Origin: Chitinophaga pinensis
GTDB taxonomy: Bacteria; Bacteroidota; Bacteroidia; UKL13-3
Direction: 5' to 3'
DNA: 64,000 bases
Assembly: GCA_945873755.1 (NCBI GenBank)
Contig: CAMCEM010000002.1
Coordinates: 3,915-67,914, forward strand
Shown here: positions 3,910-43,967 of the stretch, piece after piece
Layout of the letters: every line of letters starts with the position of its first letter
How positions within the stretch are numbered: position 1 is the first letter of the stretch
The notes under the pieces: model-generated
The model's input: the letters and a program-made list of their open reading frames with translations, nothing else
Databases searched by the model: none
Told to the model about the DNA's origin: nothing
Made by a program: the position numbers and the translations under genes

Positions 3910-5534
3910 TATTTAATTGGTAAAAAATGTTTGGCGTAATTAACTTTCATTCTATCTAAAATTCCTTTGTGAATGTATAATCTTTCTTGAAAATCTGGAA
4001 AATTTTTGTACTCCATATTGGTCCATAAAACCTCTGATAAAGCGCTCATTCTTGGCAAAGCCATGTACTCAACTTGTGAAAAATTAGTAATGTATTCTGT
4101 CCAAACATTTGCTTGCGCACCCATGATAAATTTTTGTTCATTTTCATTTAAAGAATCTGGAGTTGGGTTATAATTATAAACGGAATCTAATGGATTAAAT
4201 CCACCAATTGCCATGGGTTCAGCAGCTTTGTCCCTGCTTTGATAATGATCAAAATAACATGGTCTTCCCGGACTCATTACCACAAAATGATTTTGTTTGG
4301 CGGCAGCAATTCCACCATTGATTCCTCTCCAACTCATTAACGCTGCGTTGGGTGCTAATCCACCTTCTAAAATTTCGTCCCAACCTATAATTTGTCGTCC
4401 ATTTGCATTCACATATTTTTCAATTCTGGTAATAAAATAACTTTGTAATTCTTCTTCATTTTTTAAATGTTCATCTGCTTTTCGCTTCTGGCATTTTGCG
4501 CACGATTTCCATTTAGTTTTTACACACTCATCGCCCCCAATATGAATGTATTTACTCGGAAATAATTCCATTACTTCCTTTAAAATATTTTCTAAAAACA
4601 CAAAAGCTTCATCGTTTCCAGTACAATACACATCATCGGAAACACCCCAACGGCTATAGGTTTCAAACGGACCAGCATTACACGCATATTGCGGATACGC
4701 AGCCAAAGCAGCTAATGAATGTCCGGGCATTTCTATTTCAGGAAGTACCGTAATATGTCTGTTTTTTGCATACGCAACAATTTCTTTGATGTCGTTTTGC
4801 GTGTAAAAACCCTCATACAAAGTGCTGTCGTATTTATCGTTTGCGGAAGGATTTCCTAATGAATCAAATGTTGGTTTGCCAATTAAAGTGGCTTTTCGTT
4901 TACTACCAATTTTAGTTAAAAACGGATATTTTTTTATTTCAATTCGCCATCCTTGGTCATCCACCAAATGCCAATGAAAAACATTTAGTTTATACATGGC
5001 CAAATAATCAATGTACTTTTTTACTTCGTTTTTAGTAAAAAAATGACGGCTACAATCTAAGTGCATGCCACGCCATTGGTAGCGTGGCGCATCATTTATT
5101 TGCAAACATGGAATTTTTAAAACAGTACTTTTTTCAATAGGCAATAATTGAATCAATGTTTGAATGCCATAAAAAATTCCAGCATTGTTTAAAGCATATA
5201 TATTGATTGTATTTTTTGAAACATTTAGTTGATATTCTTCTCTGTTGTTTTCACAATCTTTTCCATTTGCATTTAAAAAAGTGATTATATTTATAGCTGC
5301 TTTGGTTTTATGTGTAACTTTTAGTTTTAAACCATAATTTTCAAAAATATATTGCTTTAAATAAGCTGCTTCAGCAGATTTTTTTTCGGCAAAAATGATG
5401 GTGTTTTCATTGATAGAAAATGTTCCTTCTGCCTTTTGAATGCTATTAGGCAAAGGAATTAGCGGAAGTATTTGTGCTTGAATTTGAAAAAACAAAAACA
5501 AGGTACAGACACTTAAAAATACTTTTTTTATCAT
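3909..5534 (-). CDS. GH20 beta-N-acetylhexosaminidase
   Basis: 541 aa with a signal peptide. HLDCSRHFF, HWHLVDDQGWRIEI and IHIGGDE are GH20 catalytic-domain motifs. Confidence 0.85.
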   Translation of the reverse strand: MIKKVFLSVCTLFLFFQIQAQILPLIPLPNSIQKAEGTFSINENTIIFAEKKSAEAAYLKQYIFENYGLKLKVTHKTKAAINIITFLNANGKDCENNREEYQLNVSKNTINIYALNNAGIFYGIQTLIQLLPIEKSTVLKIPCLQINDAPRYQWRGMHLDCSRHFFTKNEVKKYIDYLAMYKLNVFHWHLVDDQGWRIEIKKYPFLTKIGSKRKATLIGKPTFDSLGNPSANDKYDSTLYEGFYTQNDIKEIVAYAKNRHITVLPEIEMPGHSLAALAAYPQYACNAGPFETYSRWGVSDDVYCTGNDEAFVFLENILKEVMELFPSKYIHIGGDECVKTKWKSCAKCQKRKADEHLKNEEELQSYFITRIEKYVNANGRQIIGWDEILEGGLAPNAALMSWRGINGGIAAAKQNHFVVMSPGRPCYFDHYQSRDKAAEPMAIGGFNPLDSVYNYNPTPDSLNENEQKFIMGAQANVWTEYITNFSQVEYMALPRMSALSEVLWTNMEYKNFPDFQERLYIHKGILDRMKVNYAKHFLPIK

Positions 5535-5650
5535 GGGATATATTTCTCTAAAATTGAATAAACAATAGTAGTAAAATATATAATGATTTCAATAAAGGAA
5601 AAAAGGAGTTTTAAAAGGAGATTTTTGTAAAAAAAGGAAGGAATTCTTGA

Positions 5651-5692
5651 ACCACATAGAAAATAAAGTTTATGCTAAATTTTCTATGTGGT
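5651..5692 (-). terminator. Perfect 14-bp hairpin downstream of msrA (accacatagaaaat...attttctatgtggt). Likely an intrinsic terminator, though the T-run is offset.
   Basis: The inverted repeat is read directly from the sequence. A cttttttt run follows on the minus strand about 10 nt after the stem. Confidence 0.35.
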
Positions 5693-5728
5693 ATAATTAG
5701 CAACTATGTGTTAAGTTTTTTAAAAAAA

Positions 5729-6391
5729 TTATTTTTTACCAAACTTATCTCCAAATACTTTCTTAAACTTTTCTAACTTAGGAGCTATTACAAATTGGCA
5801 GTAAGGTTGGTCGTTGTTTTGATTATAGTAGTTTTGATGGTAATCTTCTGCAGTGTAATAGTTATTAATTGCAGTAATTTCAGTAACAATTGGTTTTGCA
5901 AATGCACCTGATTTATCTAAATCTGTTTTATACTTTTCGGCCAATTGTTTTTGATAATCGCTATTATAAAATACTGCAGAGCGGTACTGAGTGCCAATAT
6001 CGTTGCCTTGTTGGTTTAATGTAGTTGGGTCGTGGGTTTGCCAAAAAATAGAAAGTAAAGTTTCGAAACTTACTTTACTTGAATCGAACCAAATTTTACA
6101 TACTTCGGCATGGCCAGTTTTACCATAACAAACCTCGCGGTAAGTAGGATTTTTTACATCGCCATTGGTGTAACCACTTTCAATTTTTATTACACCATTT
6201 ACTTGTTGAAATACGGCTTCCACACACCAAAAACAACCAGCACCAAATACTGCTGTTGAAAGTGTGTCGTTATTTTCTGTTGTCATTTTTGTAGGAGTTT
6301 GATTGGTTTGTTTGTTGTTGTTTTGAGCACAACTTGTTAAACTTACTATTAGTAAAGTTTGTAAGTAAAAAATAGTTTTTAAAATTTTCAT
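5729..6391 (-). CDS. msrA: Peptide methionine sulfoxide reductase MsrA, secreted or lipoprotein form
   Basis: FGAGCFWCVEAVF...GYTNG...YREVCYGKTGHAEV is the canonical MsrA active site. The N-terminus has a signal peptide. Confidence 0.9.
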   Translation of the reverse strand: MKILKTIFYLQTLLIVSLTSCAQNNNKQTNQTPTKMTTENNDTLSTAVFGAGCFWCVEAVFQQVNGVIKIESGYTNGDVKNPTYREVCYGKTGHAEVCKIWFDSSKVSFETLLSIFWQTHDPTTLNQQGNDIGTQYRSAVFYNSDYQKQLAEKYKTDLDKSGAFAKPIVTEITAINNYYTAEDYHQNYYNQNNDQPYCQFVIAPKLEKFKKVFGDKFGKK

Positions 6392-38286: not shown

Positions 38287-40497
38287 ATGAAAAAAACAAT
38301 TACACTTTTAAAAGCAGTTATTGCAGTTGCAATAATTGCATCATGCGGAAAAGAAACTGTTGAAAAAACTACCACTACAACAGGTGCCACCACTACCCCT
38401 ACAAAAACACCATTAGATTATGAAATTGATTATAGTGTAAATGTTAATTACTCTGTAATGGTAATTTCAGGTAATCATTATTCTTTAGGTGTTGGAAAAA
38501 CCAATAATTCAAGCGTTGAGGGTGCTTTAGTAACAATTACACAAGGCAGCAAAACAATTCAAAGCACAACCAATGTGCAAGGAATTGCTTCTTTTTCTGG
38601 AATCTATAAAGGATTAATAGCAGTTAGTATTGTAAAAAACGACTTTACAACTTTAAACTATTTGGTAACTGCTAACGGTTCTGTATCGGAAGCAAATGGC
38701 AAACAGCTTGACATAGCCAATATGGTTCCTATTTTTAAAATTAAAAATGATGTAACTGTTGCTCAATTAACTGGAAAAGTAACTTTTCAAAGTGATTTAA
38801 CCAATGAAAACAAAGAAAATGTTCCATTAAATACTTTGGTAACAGCTACCATTGATGCCAATGACCCAACATTTAAAGCTAGCTATATAAATGTGGCAAA
38901 TACTGGATTCTTAGCATCAATCAATAATGGTAAAATTGTACAATTTGCTTATGAAGGATTTTTTTATGATAGCACCGATGCAAACGGTATTTACAATATG
39001 ACAGTTCCTGCTGCTATTGCCGGTTTGCCTTTTAAAATTAGCGCTACCGATTTAGTTGCTGATCAAAAAGTATTTGAAAATACAGGTGTTTCAGGCTTTA
39101 ACAGAACTACCTCTTTTAGAACTGTATTTAGCCCTGACGAAATTCCTACACCTGTGCCAAATGCAGGTGGTGCTGAAGTATTGTTTTTAACAGGTTCAGG
39201 TGCCAGTGCTTTTGCAACTATTTCGGGTAGCGGACAAATAGATAGAATAAATATAACTAGTGGAGGTACTGGTTATGTGGCTGCACCAAAAGTTACAATT
39301 ACTGGAGGTGGAGGAACTGGGGCAACTGCTACAGCAACCATAAATAATGGTGTGGTTACTGGAATCAATATTGTGAACGGTGGATCAGGTTATTCGGCTG
39401 AACCTACAATAACTATTAGTTCAGGAACTGGTGCTACAGTATCGGCTAGTGTTGGTGGCGGAGGTTCAGTAGTTACAGTTGCTGTTGTAAATTCAGGAAG
39501 TGGATACACTACTACTCCAAATGTAACTATAGCTGCACCTACATTACCTGGAGGCGCTGCAGCTACTGCAACTGCAAACGTATCTGGTGGAAGAATAACA
39601 AGCATCACACTTACAAGTGGTGGATCTGGATATACTTCGGCTCCTAGTGTTACAATCGACCCTGCTCCATCGGGTGGTATCAATGCTACTGCTCAAACGG
39701 GTTTCTCGGGCTTATCCGTTCAAACCGTAACCATTACAAACCCCGGTTCAGGTTATACTGGCGCTCCTACAGTTACATTTTCCGACCCTTCATTACCAAC
39801 AGGAACCAAAGCAACGGGCTCCGCTATTTTCGACCCTGCTACAGGTTCAGTAATTGGTATTTCAATATCTAATCCTGGTTCTGGCTATTTTGCGCCACCA
39901 TCGGTTACTTTAAGTTCTGGCTCTGGAGCAAGTGGACAAGCAGTATTTTCTGGTCGCTCTATAACTGGGTTTACGGTAACCAACCCAGGTGCAAATTACA
40001 CATCGGCACCAAGAGTAAGAATTACTGGAGGAGGAGGAACAGGCGCACAGGCAACTGCAATTATTGCAAATGGAAGAGTTACTGGATTTAATATTACCAA
40101 TCCTGGTCAAGGTTATACTTCATCACCAAGTGTTGAGTTAATAGCAGGCAGTGGCGCCCAAGCATCTATCATTATTGCCAATGGGCAAGTTTCTACCATT
40201 AATATAGTAAATGGTGGAAGCCAATACACAGGAGCACCAACCATAGTAATTAACCCTTTACCTTCAAACGGACCTGGTGGAGGCGCAACCGCAACTGCCA
40301 CTATTGATGCAAATGGTGCTGTTACTAGTGTAACCATTACTAACCCAGGTACAGGATATATTGGGGGCAATATACCTTCCATTGCTGAACCATTTAGTTT
40401 AAATCCTAGTGCAATTAATAATAAAATAAATGTAAAACCTGGATTGAATTACATAAGAGATATACATTATGGTACTGGTAAAAAATTACCTCAGTAA
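38287..40497 (+). CDS. Surface lipoprotein with about 13 tandem GSGY(T/S)xxPxVTI repeats of about 32 aa each. Putative adhesin.
   Basis: IIASCGK is a lipobox. From about aa 300: ...ITSGGTGYVAAPKVTITGGGGTGATATATINNGVVTG..., ITNPGSGYTGAPTVTF... and similar units. The gene is markedly GC-richer than its surroundings. Confidence 0.7.
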   Translation: MKKTITLLKAVIAVAIIASCGKETVEKTTTTTGATTTPTKTPLDYEIDYSVNVNYSVMVISGNHYSLGVGKTNNSSVEGALVTITQGSKTIQSTTNVQGIASFSGIYKGLIAVSIVKNDFTTLNYLVTANGSVSEANGKQLDIANMVPIFKIKNDVTVAQLTGKVTFQSDLTNENKENVPLNTLVTATIDANDPTFKASYINVANTGFLASINNGKIVQFAYEGFFYDSTDANGIYNMTVPAAIAGLPFKISATDLVADQKVFENTGVSGFNRTTSFRTVFSPDEIPTPVPNAGGAEVLFLTGSGASAFATISGSGQIDRINITSGGTGYVAAPKVTITGGGGTGATATATINNGVVTGINIVNGGSGYSAEPTITISSGTGATVSASVGGGGSVVTVAVVNSGSGYTTTPNVTIAAPTLPGGAAATATANVSGGRITSITLTSGGSGYTSAPSVTIDPAPSGGINATAQTGFSGLSVQTVTITNPGSGYTGAPTVTFSDPSLPTGTKATGSAIFDPATGSVIGISISNPGSGYFAPPSVTLSSGSGASGQAVFSGRSITGFTVTNPGANYTSAPRVRITGGGGTGAQATAIIANGRVTGFNITNPGQGYTSSPSVELIAGSGAQASIIIANGQVSTINIVNGGSQYTGAPTIVINPLPSNGPGGGATATATIDANGAVTSVTITNPGTGYIGGNIPSIAEPFSLNPSAINNKINVKPGLNYIRDIHYGTGKKLPQ

Positions 40498-40601: not shown

Positions 40602-41807
40602 ATGAAAATAAATGTAATTAAACTATTGGTTGTTTTTGGCTGTATTAGTATTTTTTCGTGTACTAAGGAAACCAAAGAAACAATAATAATTGAGGGTGGG
40701 AAGCCTATAAAAAGTTCTAGTGCAGAATCTTTAAGTGAAGAAGATTTGGCTTTTTGGGATAATTCATCAACTGTTAATTTAAATATAAATGATATTTTAC
40801 TGCCTAATGGTATGACATTTAGCCAATACAAATTAAGTATTGGAAAAACAACCACAGAAGGTGAAAACAGAAATTTATTGTTGATGCTATTGGGTGAAAA
40901 AGCACACAACATAATTAACTACACAAATCCAGATTTTGCAACCAATATACCTAAACAAACTAAGTTAGCTTATAGTTGGAACAGTAAGGATTATACCAAT
41001 CCATCAAGTGATCCAAATGGTTGTCCTGAAAGCATCTATGGATTAGATTGCTCAGGATTTTTATACAACGTGTTTAAAAATGCAGGCTTTAATGGTTTTA
41101 AGGTTGGTGCAGCTGACGACCAAAGAAAAGAAGCTCACTTATCTAATGTATTTTCAAAAACCGGTCAATTAACAAATGCTGAAGGTAAAAATATTGATTT
41201 AAAAAATATGGTTGCTAAAGATTTTGGAGAAATCCCTCCAGCCAGCATGCTAACAGGTGATATAATTTATTGGTTAGATGCTAGTGGTCGTGCCAAACAT
41301 ATTGGAATCATCTTAAAGAATGGTAGTGGTATATCAGTAGCTCAATCAAATGGCCATCAAAATGAAGAAAGTGATACAAAAAATAGCAATGATTGTGAAA
41401 AAAATTATGGAGCCAATAGAGGACCGAGATTTACATCAAATGTTGAAAATTCAATTAAGTCAACAGCTAATGGTGGATTTGGTGATAGCTATGGTATTGT
41501 TCGCTGTTTGGAAAAAACTCCTTGCAATGCCAAAACCATTTCTGGTGGTTTTGGTGTAACGCCTACACTTCACTCTGTTGGTTCAAAAAGTGGAACCATT
41601 CAATTGAATTATGAAATGTACTCTATACCCGATAAATTAGAAGTATTTTATGAAGGTAAATTATTATTTTCAACTAATGGTTTTGTAAGTGGAAATAAAA
41701 CCGAATCAATAACATATAACTACAACAAAGAAACCGAAATTGAAGTAATTGTAACAGGCAATGATGCTGGCACAGCTTGGGAGTATACAGTTAACTGCCC
41801 TGAATAA
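40602..41807 (+). CDS. Lipoprotein with an NlpC/P60-like cysteine-peptidase core
   Basis: IFSCTK is a lipobox. YGLDCSGFLYNVF is the catalytic Cys context, and GDIIYW...AKHIGIIL is the His context. Confidence 0.55.
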   Translation: MKINVIKLLVVFGCISIFSCTKETKETIIIEGGKPIKSSSAESLSEEDLAFWDNSSTVNLNINDILLPNGMTFSQYKLSIGKTTTEGENRNLLLMLLGEKAHNIINYTNPDFATNIPKQTKLAYSWNSKDYTNPSSDPNGCPESIYGLDCSGFLYNVFKNAGFNGFKVGAADDQRKEAHLSNVFSKTGQLTNAEGKNIDLKNMVAKDFGEIPPASMLTGDIIYWLDASGRAKHIGIILKNGSGISVAQSNGHQNEESDTKNSNDCEKNYGANRGPRFTSNVENSIKSTANGGFGDSYGIVRCLEKTPCNAKTISGGFGVTPTLHSVGSKSGTIQLNYEMYSIPDKLEVFYEGKLLFSTNGFVSGNKTESITYNYNKETEIEVIVTGNDAGTAWEYTVNCPE

Positions 41808-41857
41808 TAAATAGTCTTGAACACGATTAAATGAATTACAAGAAAGACAGGATTATA

Positions 41858-41942
41858 TAATCTTGGAAATCTTGCAGTCTAGTAATCTTGTTCAAGACAA
41901 AATAAATATAAAGGAGTTATGCCGAAAATCCGGTAAAGAGTA
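41858..41942 (+). repeat. 85-nt promoter/5'-UTR segment, copy 1 (upstream of the lipoprotein gene at 41961)
   Basis: taatcttggaaatcttgcagtctagtaatcttgttcaagacaaaataaatataaaggagttatgccgaaaatccggtaaagagt. About 88% identical to 42634-42718. It contains three AATCTTG boxes and an SD-like AAAGGAG. Confidence 0.7.
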
Positions 41943-41960
41943 GGCGCCAAAACTAAAATT

Positions 41961-42524
41961 ATGAAAAAAACCTATTTACATTTTAATTTTTTCTTTCTAA
42001 CAATGTCAATTGCTTTTATCTTCACTTCGTGTGGTTCAGACGGGAAAGATGGTAAGTATTATTTATCTATTGATGATGTTACGTGCGTTTCGCGCTATTG
42101 GGACGATAATAGCTGTGTTCCATACAACTTAAGGTATTACTATTATAATGGCCCATGTTCTAATAATAAGACATTTAATTACGAATTTGACTTATGCACC
42201 GGTGGAGGTTGGAAAGGAACCTACTTTGTTAGCGTTAATGAGGGAGAAAAAGGAGGTTTTATAAGCGATGGTGATGATGGTAGCAATAGGTATTATACAC
42301 TTTCTTTATATAGTAGTGGTAAAACAATAACCTATTATAAAAATGACAATGGAAGAAACGATGCTTCTGTAGAAGATAAGAATAGACCTATTTATAACGT
42401 GTTTTCCAATACAAAAAACAAGGTAGACACTACCCTATTTTTTAAAGATGGTTTTATAAAAATTACTGGAACTTATACACCCAATGGTTCGGTAGTTACC
42501 CATGCTCCCAAAAATCAGAAATGA
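41961..42524 (+). CDS. Hypothetical lipoprotein
   Basis: FIFTSCGSDG is a lipobox. Confidence 0.5.
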   Translation: MKKTYLHFNFFFLTMSIAFIFTSCGSDGKDGKYYLSIDDVTCVSRYWDDNSCVPYNLRYYYYNGPCSNNKTFNYEFDLCTGGGWKGTYFVSVNEGEKGGFISDGDDGSNRYYTLSLYSSGKTITYYKNDNGRNDASVEDKNRPIYNVFSNTKNKVDTTLFFKDGFIKITGTYTPNGSVVTHAPKNQK

Positions 42525-42633
42525 TAATGCTATTTAGTTTCTTAAAGCTGATTTGTTGATTTTATCTTTAAGCCTAAAATTAAATTCATTTCTGAACACC
42601 GATTCAAAAGATTATAAGATAGACACGATTTTT

Positions 42634-42718
42634 AAATCTTGGTAATTCTGCAATCTTGTAATCTTGTTCAAGACAAAATAAATAATAAAGGAGTTAAGCC
42701 GAAAATCCTGTAAAGAGT
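42634..42718 (+). repeat. 85-nt promoter/5'-UTR segment, copy 2. ATG is replaced by AAG and no ORF follows.
   Basis: See copy 1. Confidence 0.7.
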
Positions 42719-42722
42719 GAAC

Positions 42723-43226
42723 GAAAATAGTCTGAACTATGATTGGCAAGATTTGAATGATTAAATTGAATTCAGCAATCATTTAATCAAAAAAATCATA
42801 GTTCAGACAAAGTGCGGTAACCTCTGCGCTTATCTGCGAAATCTGCGGGAAAATAAACGGGCAATAGTTGAACAATGGGCTTTAGCCCTTTAAAAAACAA
42901 TTTGCCTTTTTATCAATAGAAATGGGTTTTAACCCATTTCATTCGGGCAGCAGTTGGAATAATTGCCTGAGGCAAAGTAATAATACTAGCGAGTCCGATA
43001 GCAATCGGACGCTAGCGTTGGCGAATGTTGCAGCAGTAAAAATCACCCCGGTCTGCGACCACCCCTCAAAAGGGGAATTTAATAGCGTTAACATTTGAAT
43101 TTGTATTTATCTGTGTTATCTGTGGCAAAAAATCTGTAAAATCTGTGGCTATAAAAGGTTGTTGGTCGGGAGACACAACAACGGCAACATTTGTGTTTAT
43201 CAGTGAAATCTGTGGCTTAAAAAAAA
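42723..43226. other. About 500-nt non-coding block dense in perfect hairpins and short direct iterons (ATCTGTGGC x4, ATCTGCG x2). GC-richer than the flanks.
   Basis: 15-bp stem gtctgaactatgatt/aatcatagttcagac with a nested 9-bp stem. Further stems: gaaatgggtt/aacccatttc; ctagcgagtccgat-agca-atcggacgctagcg; cccctcaaaagggg. No ORF longer than 60 aa. Confidence 0.6.
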
Positions 43227-43967
43227 TTATTTATGCCTGAACCAGCAACTGTTGTTATTGGTTTCGTAACCTTTAAATATAGTATTTATTGGAGCTCCGT
43301 GGATTAGTTGAGTATTAAATTTATTGCGAGCTATGTAATTGAATGCACCCATATCGCCTGTGTATGCTGCTTTATTGTTTTGGTTATAGAGTGTATGAAA
43401 ACTCACTAATTCGGTTAGTAAAAATGTCATAACAGCTATACTCCCTCCTATTATTCCGCAATTAAGTAAAGTTTCATTTGCATATTTTTCCTCATAATCA
43501 GCAAACGTTGGTATTTGATTTCGAAAATGGGTAGAATGTTTCATCATCCATTCGTTGTTTAAAGTAGTTGGTTCATCGCCACAAAATAAAGAAGTAGGAT
43601 TACCTTTAAACAATGGCTGTTCAAATGGATTATTTATTACTTCTACATCGGTACTATCGGTTATAAATAACGATTCTATTTGATTAGGATTTTTTAATAA
43701 ATAATCTAAATAAACAAAATACCTATACACACTTAAATTGTAAATTGGATTATACTCAACTTGCTTAAAAGTAATGAACTCACTGCTGTATTTAGCTACT
43801 GTATCTGACGAAAAACTGTTATGAAATATTATACCATGAAGTTTTAAAGATGTAATGGAGCTTGCCCATTTTTCAATTAACGAATAATCATTGTTGGCTA
43901 AAGTTTCGGAACGATTTACATCGTAAACACCAGTAAAAAGGCAAGCAAAAATAAATTGTTTAGGCAT
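43227..43967 (-). CDS. Hypothetical protein, possibly a nucleotide-sugar transferase-like protein
   Basis: ORF only. Tentative because it is adjacent to a GT2. Confidence 0.4.
   Translation of the reverse strand: MPKQFIFACLFTGVYDVNRSETLANNDYSLIEKWASSITSLKLHGIIFHNSFSSDTVAKYSSEFITFKQVEYNPIYNLSVYRYFVYLDYLLKNPNQIESLFITDSTDVEVINNPFEQPLFKGNPTSLFCGDEPTTLNNEWMMKHSTHFRNQIPTFADYEEKYANETLLNCGIIGGSIAVMTFLLTELVSFHTLYNQNNKAAYTGDMGAFNYIARNKFNTQLIHGAPINTIFKGYETNNNSCWFRHK

Follow-up and report, generated by a model that had tools for sequence, protein, structure and literature searches.

The 702-nt gap at positions 42525-43226 of a 64-kb stretch of Bacteroidota DNA (contig CAMCEM010000002.1; the whole stretch is called the window below) lies between a plus-strand gene for a predicted lipoprotein and a gene for a conserved 246-amino-acid (246-aa) protein on the minus strand, which converge on it. 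We propose, with a probability of roughly 0.65, that the block of repeats filling this gap is an intergenic pile-up of small repeats rather than a gene or an origin and would represent decaying selfish DNA. An earlier reading made from the letters of the window (the sequence-only reading) had described a duplicated promoter and 5' untranslated segment driving no open reading frame (ORF), followed by a hairpin- and iteron-rich block that could be a structured noncoding RNA (ncRNA), an element resembling miniature inverted-repeat transposable elements (MITEs), or an origin remnant. According to our proposal, the upstream module of the lipoprotein gene would have been duplicated in tandem, copy 2 having lost the gene together with the 5 final positions of its leader, and the palindrome alone would have been kept in a copy 3. 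Arrays of heptads would have arrived as selfish repeats related to cassettes that carry genes of the GxxExxY family, and a 65-nt unit would have arrived as a selfish repeat that resembles repetitive extragenic palindromic (REP) elements and is tied to a Y1 transposase. In this gap, the repeats would be inert, gene-less remnants, and the only activity likely for them is that the hairpins terminate or insulate the two convergent transcripts. The gap region is identical in a metagenome contig that matches the window (ENA ERZ27280302, k141_2018494).

Alignment of the DNA upstream of the lipoprotein gene with that downstream of it paired 41818-41941 with 42593-42718 in 127 columns, of which 85.8% are identical (blastn, E = 9e-35). 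The duplication that had been noticed here is therefore borne out but is longer than described, starting about 40 nt 5' of the position 42634 given for it. Each copy carries the expected three AATCTTG boxes (41859, 41868, and 41884 in copy 1; 42635, 42652, and 42660 in copy 2), and the ATG at 41919 of copy 1 is indeed changed to AAG at 42696 of copy 2. We read the duplicated segment as a 5' leader module composed of a palindrome and a leader of the DUF805b type. The outer arms of the copy 1 palindrome are 16 nt long and complementary at 15 of the 16 positions (94%), the inner part is palindromic as well, and the fold energy is -31.2 kcal/mol. In the inner arms, GATT-type units on the left face three AATCTTG units on the right at a period of 8 to 9 nt or double that, and the AATCTTG boxes are thus the right arm of this palindrome. 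The promoter consensus of Bacteroidetes is TTTG (-33) and TAnnTTTG (-7), and copy 1 contains CTTG at 41861-41864 and TAATCTTG at 41883-41890, spaced 18 nt, as a possible, weakly supported Bacteroidota promoter. The -33/-7-like boxes and their spacing are retained in copy 2.

Downstream of its palindrome, copy 1 covers all 35 positions of the Rfam model for DUF805b RNA (RF02914, clan CL00115), a candidate cis-regulatory leader of Bacteroidota, with 34.0 bits (E = 2.2e-7), which is 1.6 bits short of the gathering score of 35.6. Like other members, it contains GCCGAAAA and AAAGAGUAGG and lies in a 5' untranslated region, ending 15 nt before the ATG at 41961, and the bases of the GCCGAAAA loop and of the single-stranded AAAGAGUAGGcA tail are all conserved. 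It differs in that the gene served here is a lipoprotein gene rather than one for a DUF805 protein. The homologous leader in locus L005 of a relative (lipoprotein 76% identical) reached 39.5 bits, above the gathering score, and L005 carries an analogous palindrome with arms that differ in sequence and are complementary to each other. The AAAGGAG and ATG listed in the sequence-only reading are not a ribosome-binding site and start codon: they lie within the DUF805b motif, the ATG at 41919 begins an ORF of just 5 codons, and the start codon of the gene is the one at 41961. At L005 2392-3027, a 211-aa ORF has been called from an ATG within the DUF805b motif, and a later MKTIFTC signal peptide is the likely true start, so that the motif there is likely a leader mis-annotated as coding. 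A scan for the exact core returned at least 14 further DUF805b instances in IMG/VR contigs, each 20 to 45 nt 5' of a start codon. These at least 14 contigs (L229-L242) are phage-like, with the core standing before varied genes rather than one family, and L231 has two DUF805b copies with the same hairpin ahead of each.

The leader of copy 2 matched model positions 2 to 30 with 22.2 bits (E = 2e-3). Homology between the copies stops after AGAGU, and the conserved AGGCA tail (positions 31 to 35) is lost. The 4-bp stem of the motif has three canonical pairs and one A-G in copy 1 and four canonical pairs in copy 2. As had been claimed, no gene follows copy 2, a further difference from known DUF805b leaders: the ORFs there are only 51 to 58 aa long, and a Pfam search of the three small ORFs in the block gave no match. 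Neither tblastn nor blastn detected a remnant of the lipoprotein coding sequence downstream of copy 2, returning only noise. These results bear on the possibility that the block is what remains of a tandemly duplicated lipoprotein paralogue with a coding sequence decayed past recognition. What was duplicated is precisely the upstream module of the gene, shifted by one gene length (776 nt), as that account predicts, but no trace of coding sequence was found in protein or DNA although the leader is still 86% identical, and the homology breaks off within the DUF805b motif, beyond which come a further copy of the palindrome and repeats of foreign origin. Because there is no such trace and the homology ends abruptly within the motif, the coding sequence would have been replaced or never copied, not eroded, and we consider a decayed paralogue quite improbable.

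The large hairpin at 42730-42808, in a segment that begins 7 nt past the end of copy 2, probably represents the palindrome a third time, diverged and lacking the leader. Its 15-bp perfect outer stem and nested 9-bp stem (42758-42766/42781-42789) were both present as described. GATT units at 42741, 42750, and 42759 lie opposite AATC units at 42777, 42785, and 42794; like copy 1, the segment has AAATAGTCT at its start and GACAAA at its end; and the differences between its outer arms and those of copy 1 come as paired changes. The similarity of copy 3 to copy 1 had a z score of 3.1 and was equalled by 10 of 2000 shuffles and by 2 of 872 control segments. The block had also been credited with four more perfect stems of 9 to 13 bp; one of these was found (42919-42927/42932-42940), and the other three are bulged or shorter. 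Altogether, 3 perfect stems of at least 9 bp were observed versus 0.27 in shuffles. The raised G+C content of the block was likewise confirmed, at 0.40 to 0.43 in 42800-43200 versus 0.27 to 0.35 in the flanks.

The supposed iterons are heptad arrays. Each full array consists of three ATCWGYG heptads at a period of 9 to 10 nt, the last one followed by G and an A-run, and each array in the window adjoins a G+C-rich hairpin. The double-heptad pattern occurs 4 times versus 0.46 expected and, within the 64 kb, is confined to the gap; a profile hidden Markov model of 151 arrays, searched against the same 64 kb, matched only U1, U3, U2, and U2b (Table 1). The earlier counts were partly right: ATCTGTGGC occurs three times rather than four, ATCTGCG occurs twice as stated, and ATCTGTG occurs four times. 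All four arrays are on the plus strand, and no inverted partner of any of them was found in the window. Array U1 is 85 to 86% identical to two segments of L223, a locus of a related genome (4748-4791 and 7525-7570), and U3 and the stop codon of the 246-aa gene on the minus strand are 10 nt apart. We interpret the window arrays as gene-less solo arms of a widespread element.

Direct repeats of one orientation, clustered beside A+T-rich (here A-rich) runs and hairpins, do recall the origins of iteron plasmids, and a relic iteron-type replication origin or transfer origin was one of the readings offered for the block. It did not hold up, on grounds of repeat size, gene content, DnaA boxes, and GC skew. 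The repeats are 7-mers at a 9- to 10-nt period and not iterons of 17 to 22 bp, and they are chromosomal and multicopy. Among the Pfam-assigned genes within about 10 kb, none for an initiator (Rep) or for Par, relaxase, or mobilization proteins was seen, several neighbors having no Pfam match. A search of 42525-43226 for DnaA boxes, allowing up to 1 mismatch, gave none, and across the window these boxes are depleted. There is no switch in GC skew, and the block, being richer in G+C than its flanks, does not offer the context of an A+T-rich unwinding element. Finally, the same arrays occur in hundreds of genomes, between ordinary chromosomal genes of many phyla. We therefore regard an origin as extremely unlikely.

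Between arrays U1 and U2 lies a single copy of a 65-nt double-hairpin unit, flanked by imperfect 14-nt direct repeats, CGGGCAATAGTTGA and CGGGCAGCAGTTGG, which could be a target duplication or the leftover of a larger repeat. The window holds no other copy of the unit. In relatives, we counted at least 20 copies with 83 to 91% identity, distributed over L223, L225, and L226 and clustered at repeat periods of roughly 120 nt and 240 nt; 8.7-kb pieces of two related genomes account for 20 or more. In L223, units at 4880-5480 and 6010-6200 lie on both sides of a Y1_Tnp gene (5506-5943), and in L225 (4790-5250 and 7990-8190), units lie on the visible side of such a gene. The Y1_Tnp protein is 145 aa long (PF01797, 1.2e-28) and scored 70.3 bits with the IS200 model NF033573 (cutoff, 55). 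In length and in its motifs DHCH, WQ, and YIKNQEEHH, it agrees with what Quentin et al. (2018; PMC6006769) call subclass 1.2, described there as low copy, limited to Cyanobacteria and Bacteroidetes, and without REPs. The arrangement resembles REPs, bacterial interspersed mosaic elements (BIMEs), and REPINs with their REP-associated tyrosine transposases (RAYTs), the general picture of which is given in PMC6006769 and PMC3733652. The likeness consists of short palindromic intergenic repeats present as singlets, inverted doublets, and clusters and, in L223 and L225 only, of a single-domain Y1 HUH transposase gene flanked by repeat copies. It differs in that the Y1 protein of the relatives fits the IS200 model, not the RAYT model, and has the subclass 1.2 signature; in that the units flanking the Y1 gene are in direct, not inverted, orientation; and in that inspection by eye revealed no clear tag of the GTAG or CGTC kind, with a possible CGTC in the hairpin at 42986-43015.

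We compared the gap with the corresponding loci of relatives. In L222, the closest of them (neighbor protein 93% identical to the 246-aa protein), the gene is followed by a 60-nt gap with none of the elements of the block, and these elements are also absent from L227 (76% identical). In L223, L225, and L226, the neighbor protein is 80 to 83% identical. An array lies directly after the stop codon of the orthologue of the 246-aa gene in both L223 and L225; it is followed by hairpins, a second array, and 65-nt units in L223 and straight away by the units in L225. Unit numbers differ between these two loci, and their partner genes on the far side differ from that of the window. The leader module, for its part, precedes a different gene in L005 and is not found before the lipoprotein in L003. 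Because element content and flanking genes differ among relatives, the gap is a variable hot spot and not a conserved locus.

The hairpin at 43158-43182, followed on the minus strand by CUUUUAUA, is likely the intrinsic terminator of the 246-aa gene, to judge from its stem and tail, and it is 96% identical to L223 7501-7524, in another intergenic region. The core CCGATAGCnATCGG of the hairpin at 42986-43015 is also found in L223 hairpins. A simple terminator scan called one weak site in the block and left the hairpin at 43158-43182 uncalled; the promoter and terminator scan used a sigma-70 model, which is uninformative for Bacteroidota. REP elements and BIMEs of enterobacteria have been proposed to end and protect mRNAs, and the block could similarly be a functional cluster of bidirectional terminators and 3'-end stabilizers for the two convergent mRNAs. 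Its site between convergent genes is the expected one, as are the U-rich tail after the 43158-43182 hairpin, the order hairpin, T-run, array found twice in L223, the array that three lineages have behind the orthologous stop codon, and the preference of the array family for gene 3' ends (116) over 5' ends (72), among the matches listed. Set against this, L222 does with its 60-nt gap and no such element, four arrays and six hairpins far exceed the needs of termination, and the simple scan yielded only its one weak site. We consider this account somewhat unlikely; it is compatible with the selfish-repeat reading, and the two are not exclusive.

When folded as RNA, 42673-42860 had a z score of -5.96, and the block had z scores of -3.56 and -3.43 on its two strands; an equal structure signal on both strands fits DNA palindromes better than an RNA made from one strand. 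A promoter in the upstream half of copy 2, which is intact, might nevertheless drive an ncRNA comprising the truncated leader, the 15-bp hairpin, and the heptad region, acting as a small RNA or as an antisense RNA or insulator toward the 246-aa gene. The promoter-like boxes kept in copy 2, the fully canonical DUF805b stem there, and the fold of 42673-42860 are in favor of such a transcript. However, its promoter is itself a prediction, the fold signal is alike on both strands, the closest relative, L222, lacks the block, and the pieces of the block are each repeated elsewhere in other contexts. The Rfam scan that the sequence-only reading had put forward as a check also returned no family for the block, there being no hit in the whole window at the gathering score and, in 41700-43400 at E values of up to 10, only DUF805b. 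A promoter-driven ncRNA is thus an unlikely explanation.

The heptad arrays extend far beyond these relatives. A strict triple-heptad pattern was found in a genome collection in at least 120 loci and at least 151 sites from more than ten phyla, and abundances from such collection scans are lower bounds. The loci come from Verrucomicrobiota, Planctomycetota, Acidobacteriota, Chloroflexota, Gamma- and Betaproteobacteria, Nitrospirota, Desulfobacterota, Gemmatimonadota, WOR-3, Patescibacteria, and one archaeal metagenome-assembled genome (MAG), and within Bacteroidota from Pedobacter, Chryseobacterium, Prevotella, Ohtaekwangia, Chitinophaga, and Paludibacter. The profile used above was built from the 151 listed sites (120 genome loci). 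Of these arrays, 83 (55%) are lone, while an inverted partner lies 5' of 51 (9 to 172 nt away) and 3' of only 6. The complete element is a palindrome with its GG ends outward, AT/CCRCAGAT ... ATCTGYGG/AT, where the slashes mark its borders. RefSeq plasmids have matches of arrays in unannotated intergenic DNA, the phage collection gave no match to the array consensus, and 18 loci carrying complete palindromes gave no match in Rfam. Searches of the literature by sequence, family name, or accession found no description of heptad arrays. REP-type repeats are normally lineage-specific. No Y1 gene was present in 824 kb of array-bearing loci, and the arrays are therefore not REPs of the Y1 enzyme.

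Several other ideas about the arrays were rejected. All-against-all clustering of 174 adjacent ORFs placed the arrays between unrelated housekeeping genes, ruling out one protein family that always stands beside them. In loci L102-L221, AT comes next after the last heptad in 72 of the 151 listed arrays, TGYGGATAA occurs in 26, and the perfect DnaA-box complement TGTGGATAA occurs in 9; the window arrays do not end in TGTGGATAA, and with the block lacking DnaA boxes, this idea was dropped. An RNA polymerase pause element (G-10 Y-1 G+1) might account for the 10-nt period of TGYG but leaves the conserved ATC and the inverted arm unexplained.

Of the options offered by the sequence-only reading, a MITE-like element is the closest to the evidence. 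The block does consist of at least three kinds of small interspersed repeats that recur at nonhomologous sites in related genomes, and complete heptad palindromes resemble MITEs in being noncoding, 50 to 220 bp long, and conserved at their termini. They differ from MITEs in lacking an autonomous partner with a recognized transposase between the arms, in arms that are three short direct repeats, and in a target duplication that is at best the ambiguous AT: the flanks of 31 complete palindromes are AT on both sides in 14 and TTAA in 2, self-complementary sequences that are indistinguishable from an extension of the stem. The window itself holds solo arms only, with no inverted partner or target duplication.

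Between distant inverted arrays, we found no recognized transposase gene, only GxxExxY genes. A 127-aa GxxExxY ORF (PF13366, 1.7e-41; TIGR04256, 2.4e-42) in L098, an IMG/VR locus, stands between tandem palindromes, and the 120 listed genome loci contain three GxxExxY genes, each no more than about 220 nt away from an array. Scanning IMG/VR with one GxxExxY sequence recovered only the contig of the query. We then took 80 random metagenomic GxxExxY loci (L246-L325, 172 kb in total) as a sample. ATCTGYG arrays were present in 24 of the 80 (61 matches) and at most 200 nt from the gene in 22, and about 145 kb of control loci contained no match. Upstream arrays were on the minus versus the plus strand at a ratio of 25:5 and downstream arrays on the plus versus the minus strand at 17:4. 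Both arms were found in 11 loci, often 0 to 20 nt from the start and stop codons. Significant inverted repeats bracketed 49 of 66 testable GxxExxY genes, nearly all of them three-heptad arrays that are lineage-specific, with units such as CACGAAT, CACGGAT, CACGAAA, ACAGAAT, CGCAGAG, ACAGGAT, and others. ATCTGYG is thus one class only of a general bracket design at GxxExxY genes. In a Paludibacter MAG, runs of hairpin and array in a single orientation, such as the window shows, lie beside a GxxExxY gene. At L219 521-895, a gene for a four-helix-bundle protein of the 23S rRNA intervening sequence (IVS) type lies between inverted GTCCCT-type arrays, with an ATCTGYG array just outside. A heptad palindrome shared across phyla and its systematic bracketing of GxxExxY genes appear to be new, as no description of them was found.

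These brackets suggest, as a tentative proposal to which we give somewhat less than an even chance, a cross-phylum class of selfish cassettes in which inverted three-heptad arrays enclose a gene for a GxxExxY PD-(D/E)XK nuclease or sometimes for a four-helix-bundle IVS-type protein. The nuclease would recognize or cut the arrays, their cruciform, or an RNA stem and would thereby home or spread. Palindromes that lack a gene and arrays that stand alone would be nonautonomous or decayed offspring, the iterons of the window would be solo ends, and the AATCTTG boxes and the 15-bp hairpin would be diverged members. Families of the GxxExxY and four-helix-bundle 23S_rRNA_IVP types occur in 23S rRNA IVSs, and I-Ssp6803I is a PD-(D/E)XK homing endonuclease. 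In their layout, the cassettes resemble such IVSs and homing-endonuclease cassettes, with inverted repeats able to form a long stem on either side of a small ORF for a GxxExxY PD-(D/E)XK or four-helix-bundle 23S_rRNA_IVP-type protein; they differ in lying in intergenic DNA rather than in rRNA genes or introns, and the window has no such ORF. The GxxExxY family (PF13366), a large one, is listed among those undergoing multiple horizontal transfers (PMC3424549).

Several observations weigh against the view that the block is a pile-up of decaying selfish repeats. Direct evidence of mobility was not found: there was no pair of empty and filled sites and no clear target duplication, just AT/CC...GG/AT. 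The window contains no Y1 transposase gene in its 64 kb, and neither it nor the loci of the relatives contain a GxxExxY gene. The Y1 protein of the relatives falls under the RAYT cutoff (NF047646 REP_Tyr_transpos, 32.7 bits versus 80), U2 and U2b fit the array profile only marginally (E of 8.5e-3 and 0.17), and the homology of copy 3 is statistically weak at its z score of 3.1. Moreover, the array that three lineages carry immediately past the stop codon of the 246-aa gene could have a conserved function, such as that of a 3'-end element, rather than being junk.

Table 1. Features in and around the gap at 42525-43226 (positions in the window; a dot marks features without an assigned strand)
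Feature	Position	Strand	Details
Predicted lipoprotein gene, 187 aa	41961-42524	+	Signal peptide ending in Cys; no Pfam family; left gap border
Palindromic module, copy 1	41814-41898	+	Outer arms GTCTTGAACACGATTA / TAATCTTGTTCAAGAC; inverted repeats I4, I8
DUF805b-type 5' leader, copy 1, AAGGAGTTATGCCGAAAATCCGGTAAAGAGTAGGCG	41911-41946	+	Rfam RF02914; 15 nt upstream of ATG 41961
Module copy 2	42593-42718	+	Decayed palindrome and DUF805b leader (42689-42718) cut off at model position 30; no gene after it
Probable palindrome copy 3, no leader	42725-42812	+	Outer 15-bp perfect stem 42730-42744 / 42794-42808
Array U1, CTCTGCG ctt ATCTGCG aa ATCTGCGG G	42811-42856; heptads 42822-42848	+	AGTGCGG prefix conserved, A-rich tail; profile E 1.9e-7
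Imperfect 14-nt direct repeats CGGGCAATAGTTGA / CGGGCAGCAGTTGG	42858-42871, 42944-42957	.	Flank the 65-nt unit; family D6
65-nt double-hairpin unit, one copy, GGGCTTTAGCCC ... AATGGGTTTTAACCCATT	42866-42946	+	Blast copies in relatives; includes the 42919-42927 / 42932-42940 stem region
Bulged hairpin CTAGCG-ag-TCCGAT agca ATCGGA-CGCTAG	42986-43015	.	6+6 bp, 2-nt bulge; from sequence reading and fold
Short hairpin CCCCT caaa AGGGG	43062-43075	.	5-bp stem
Array U2, ATTTGTA ttt ATCTGTG tt ATCTGTGG C	43099-43126	+	Profile E 8.5e-3; repeat families D2, D3 (U2 and U2b)
Half-array U2b, ATCTGTA aa ATCTGTGG C	43132-43149	+	Profile E 0.17
Hairpin GTTGTTGgtcgggagacaCAACAAC	43158-43182	.	7-bp stem; on the minus strand, then CUUUUAUA
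Array U3, ATTTGTG ttt ATCAGTG aa ATCTGTGG C	43189-43216	+	Profile E 8e-5
Conserved Bacteroidota protein gene, 246 aa, no assigned function	43227-43967	-	1406 homologues; right gap border

The genes around the gap are typical of Bacteroidota, with Por_Secre_tail proteins among their products. The 187-aa lipoprotein was matched by only 3 protein clusters in a database of 5.8 billion proteins, and homologues of the 246-aa protein occur in Flavobacteriales, Saprospiraceae, and Spirosoma. Two further features of the window were recorded. At 38287-40497 lies a gene for a predicted 736-aa lipoprotein with many Gly/Ser/Thr-rich repeats of about 30 aa (GGSGYTSAP type) and no Pfam family, the orthologue of which stands first in the same gene cluster in L005. 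The intergenic segment 46471-46665 is a 14-nt tandem repeat of ATCTCATTTCCCAT (13.9 copies, 90% matches) that yields a spurious 90-aa ORF of ISHISF-like repeats.

For the window, the result is mainly a clean-up, in which the gene-less promoter, the iterons, and the hairpins resolve, on our reading, into a truncated DUF805b leader and stacked repeats. The REP-like units beside a Y1 transposase that fits subclass 1.2 would add a case to a subclass reported without REPs. The more valuable lead is the cross-phylum heptad motif, which comes in threes, often as inverted pairs, with brackets of this design around about three-quarters of the sampled GxxExxY genes. Its signature could be used to annotate thousands of unlabeled intergenic repeats, and if the cassette proposal is true, it would provide a testable idea of what GxxExxY proteins, and perhaps also the proteins of 23S rRNA IVSs, act on.

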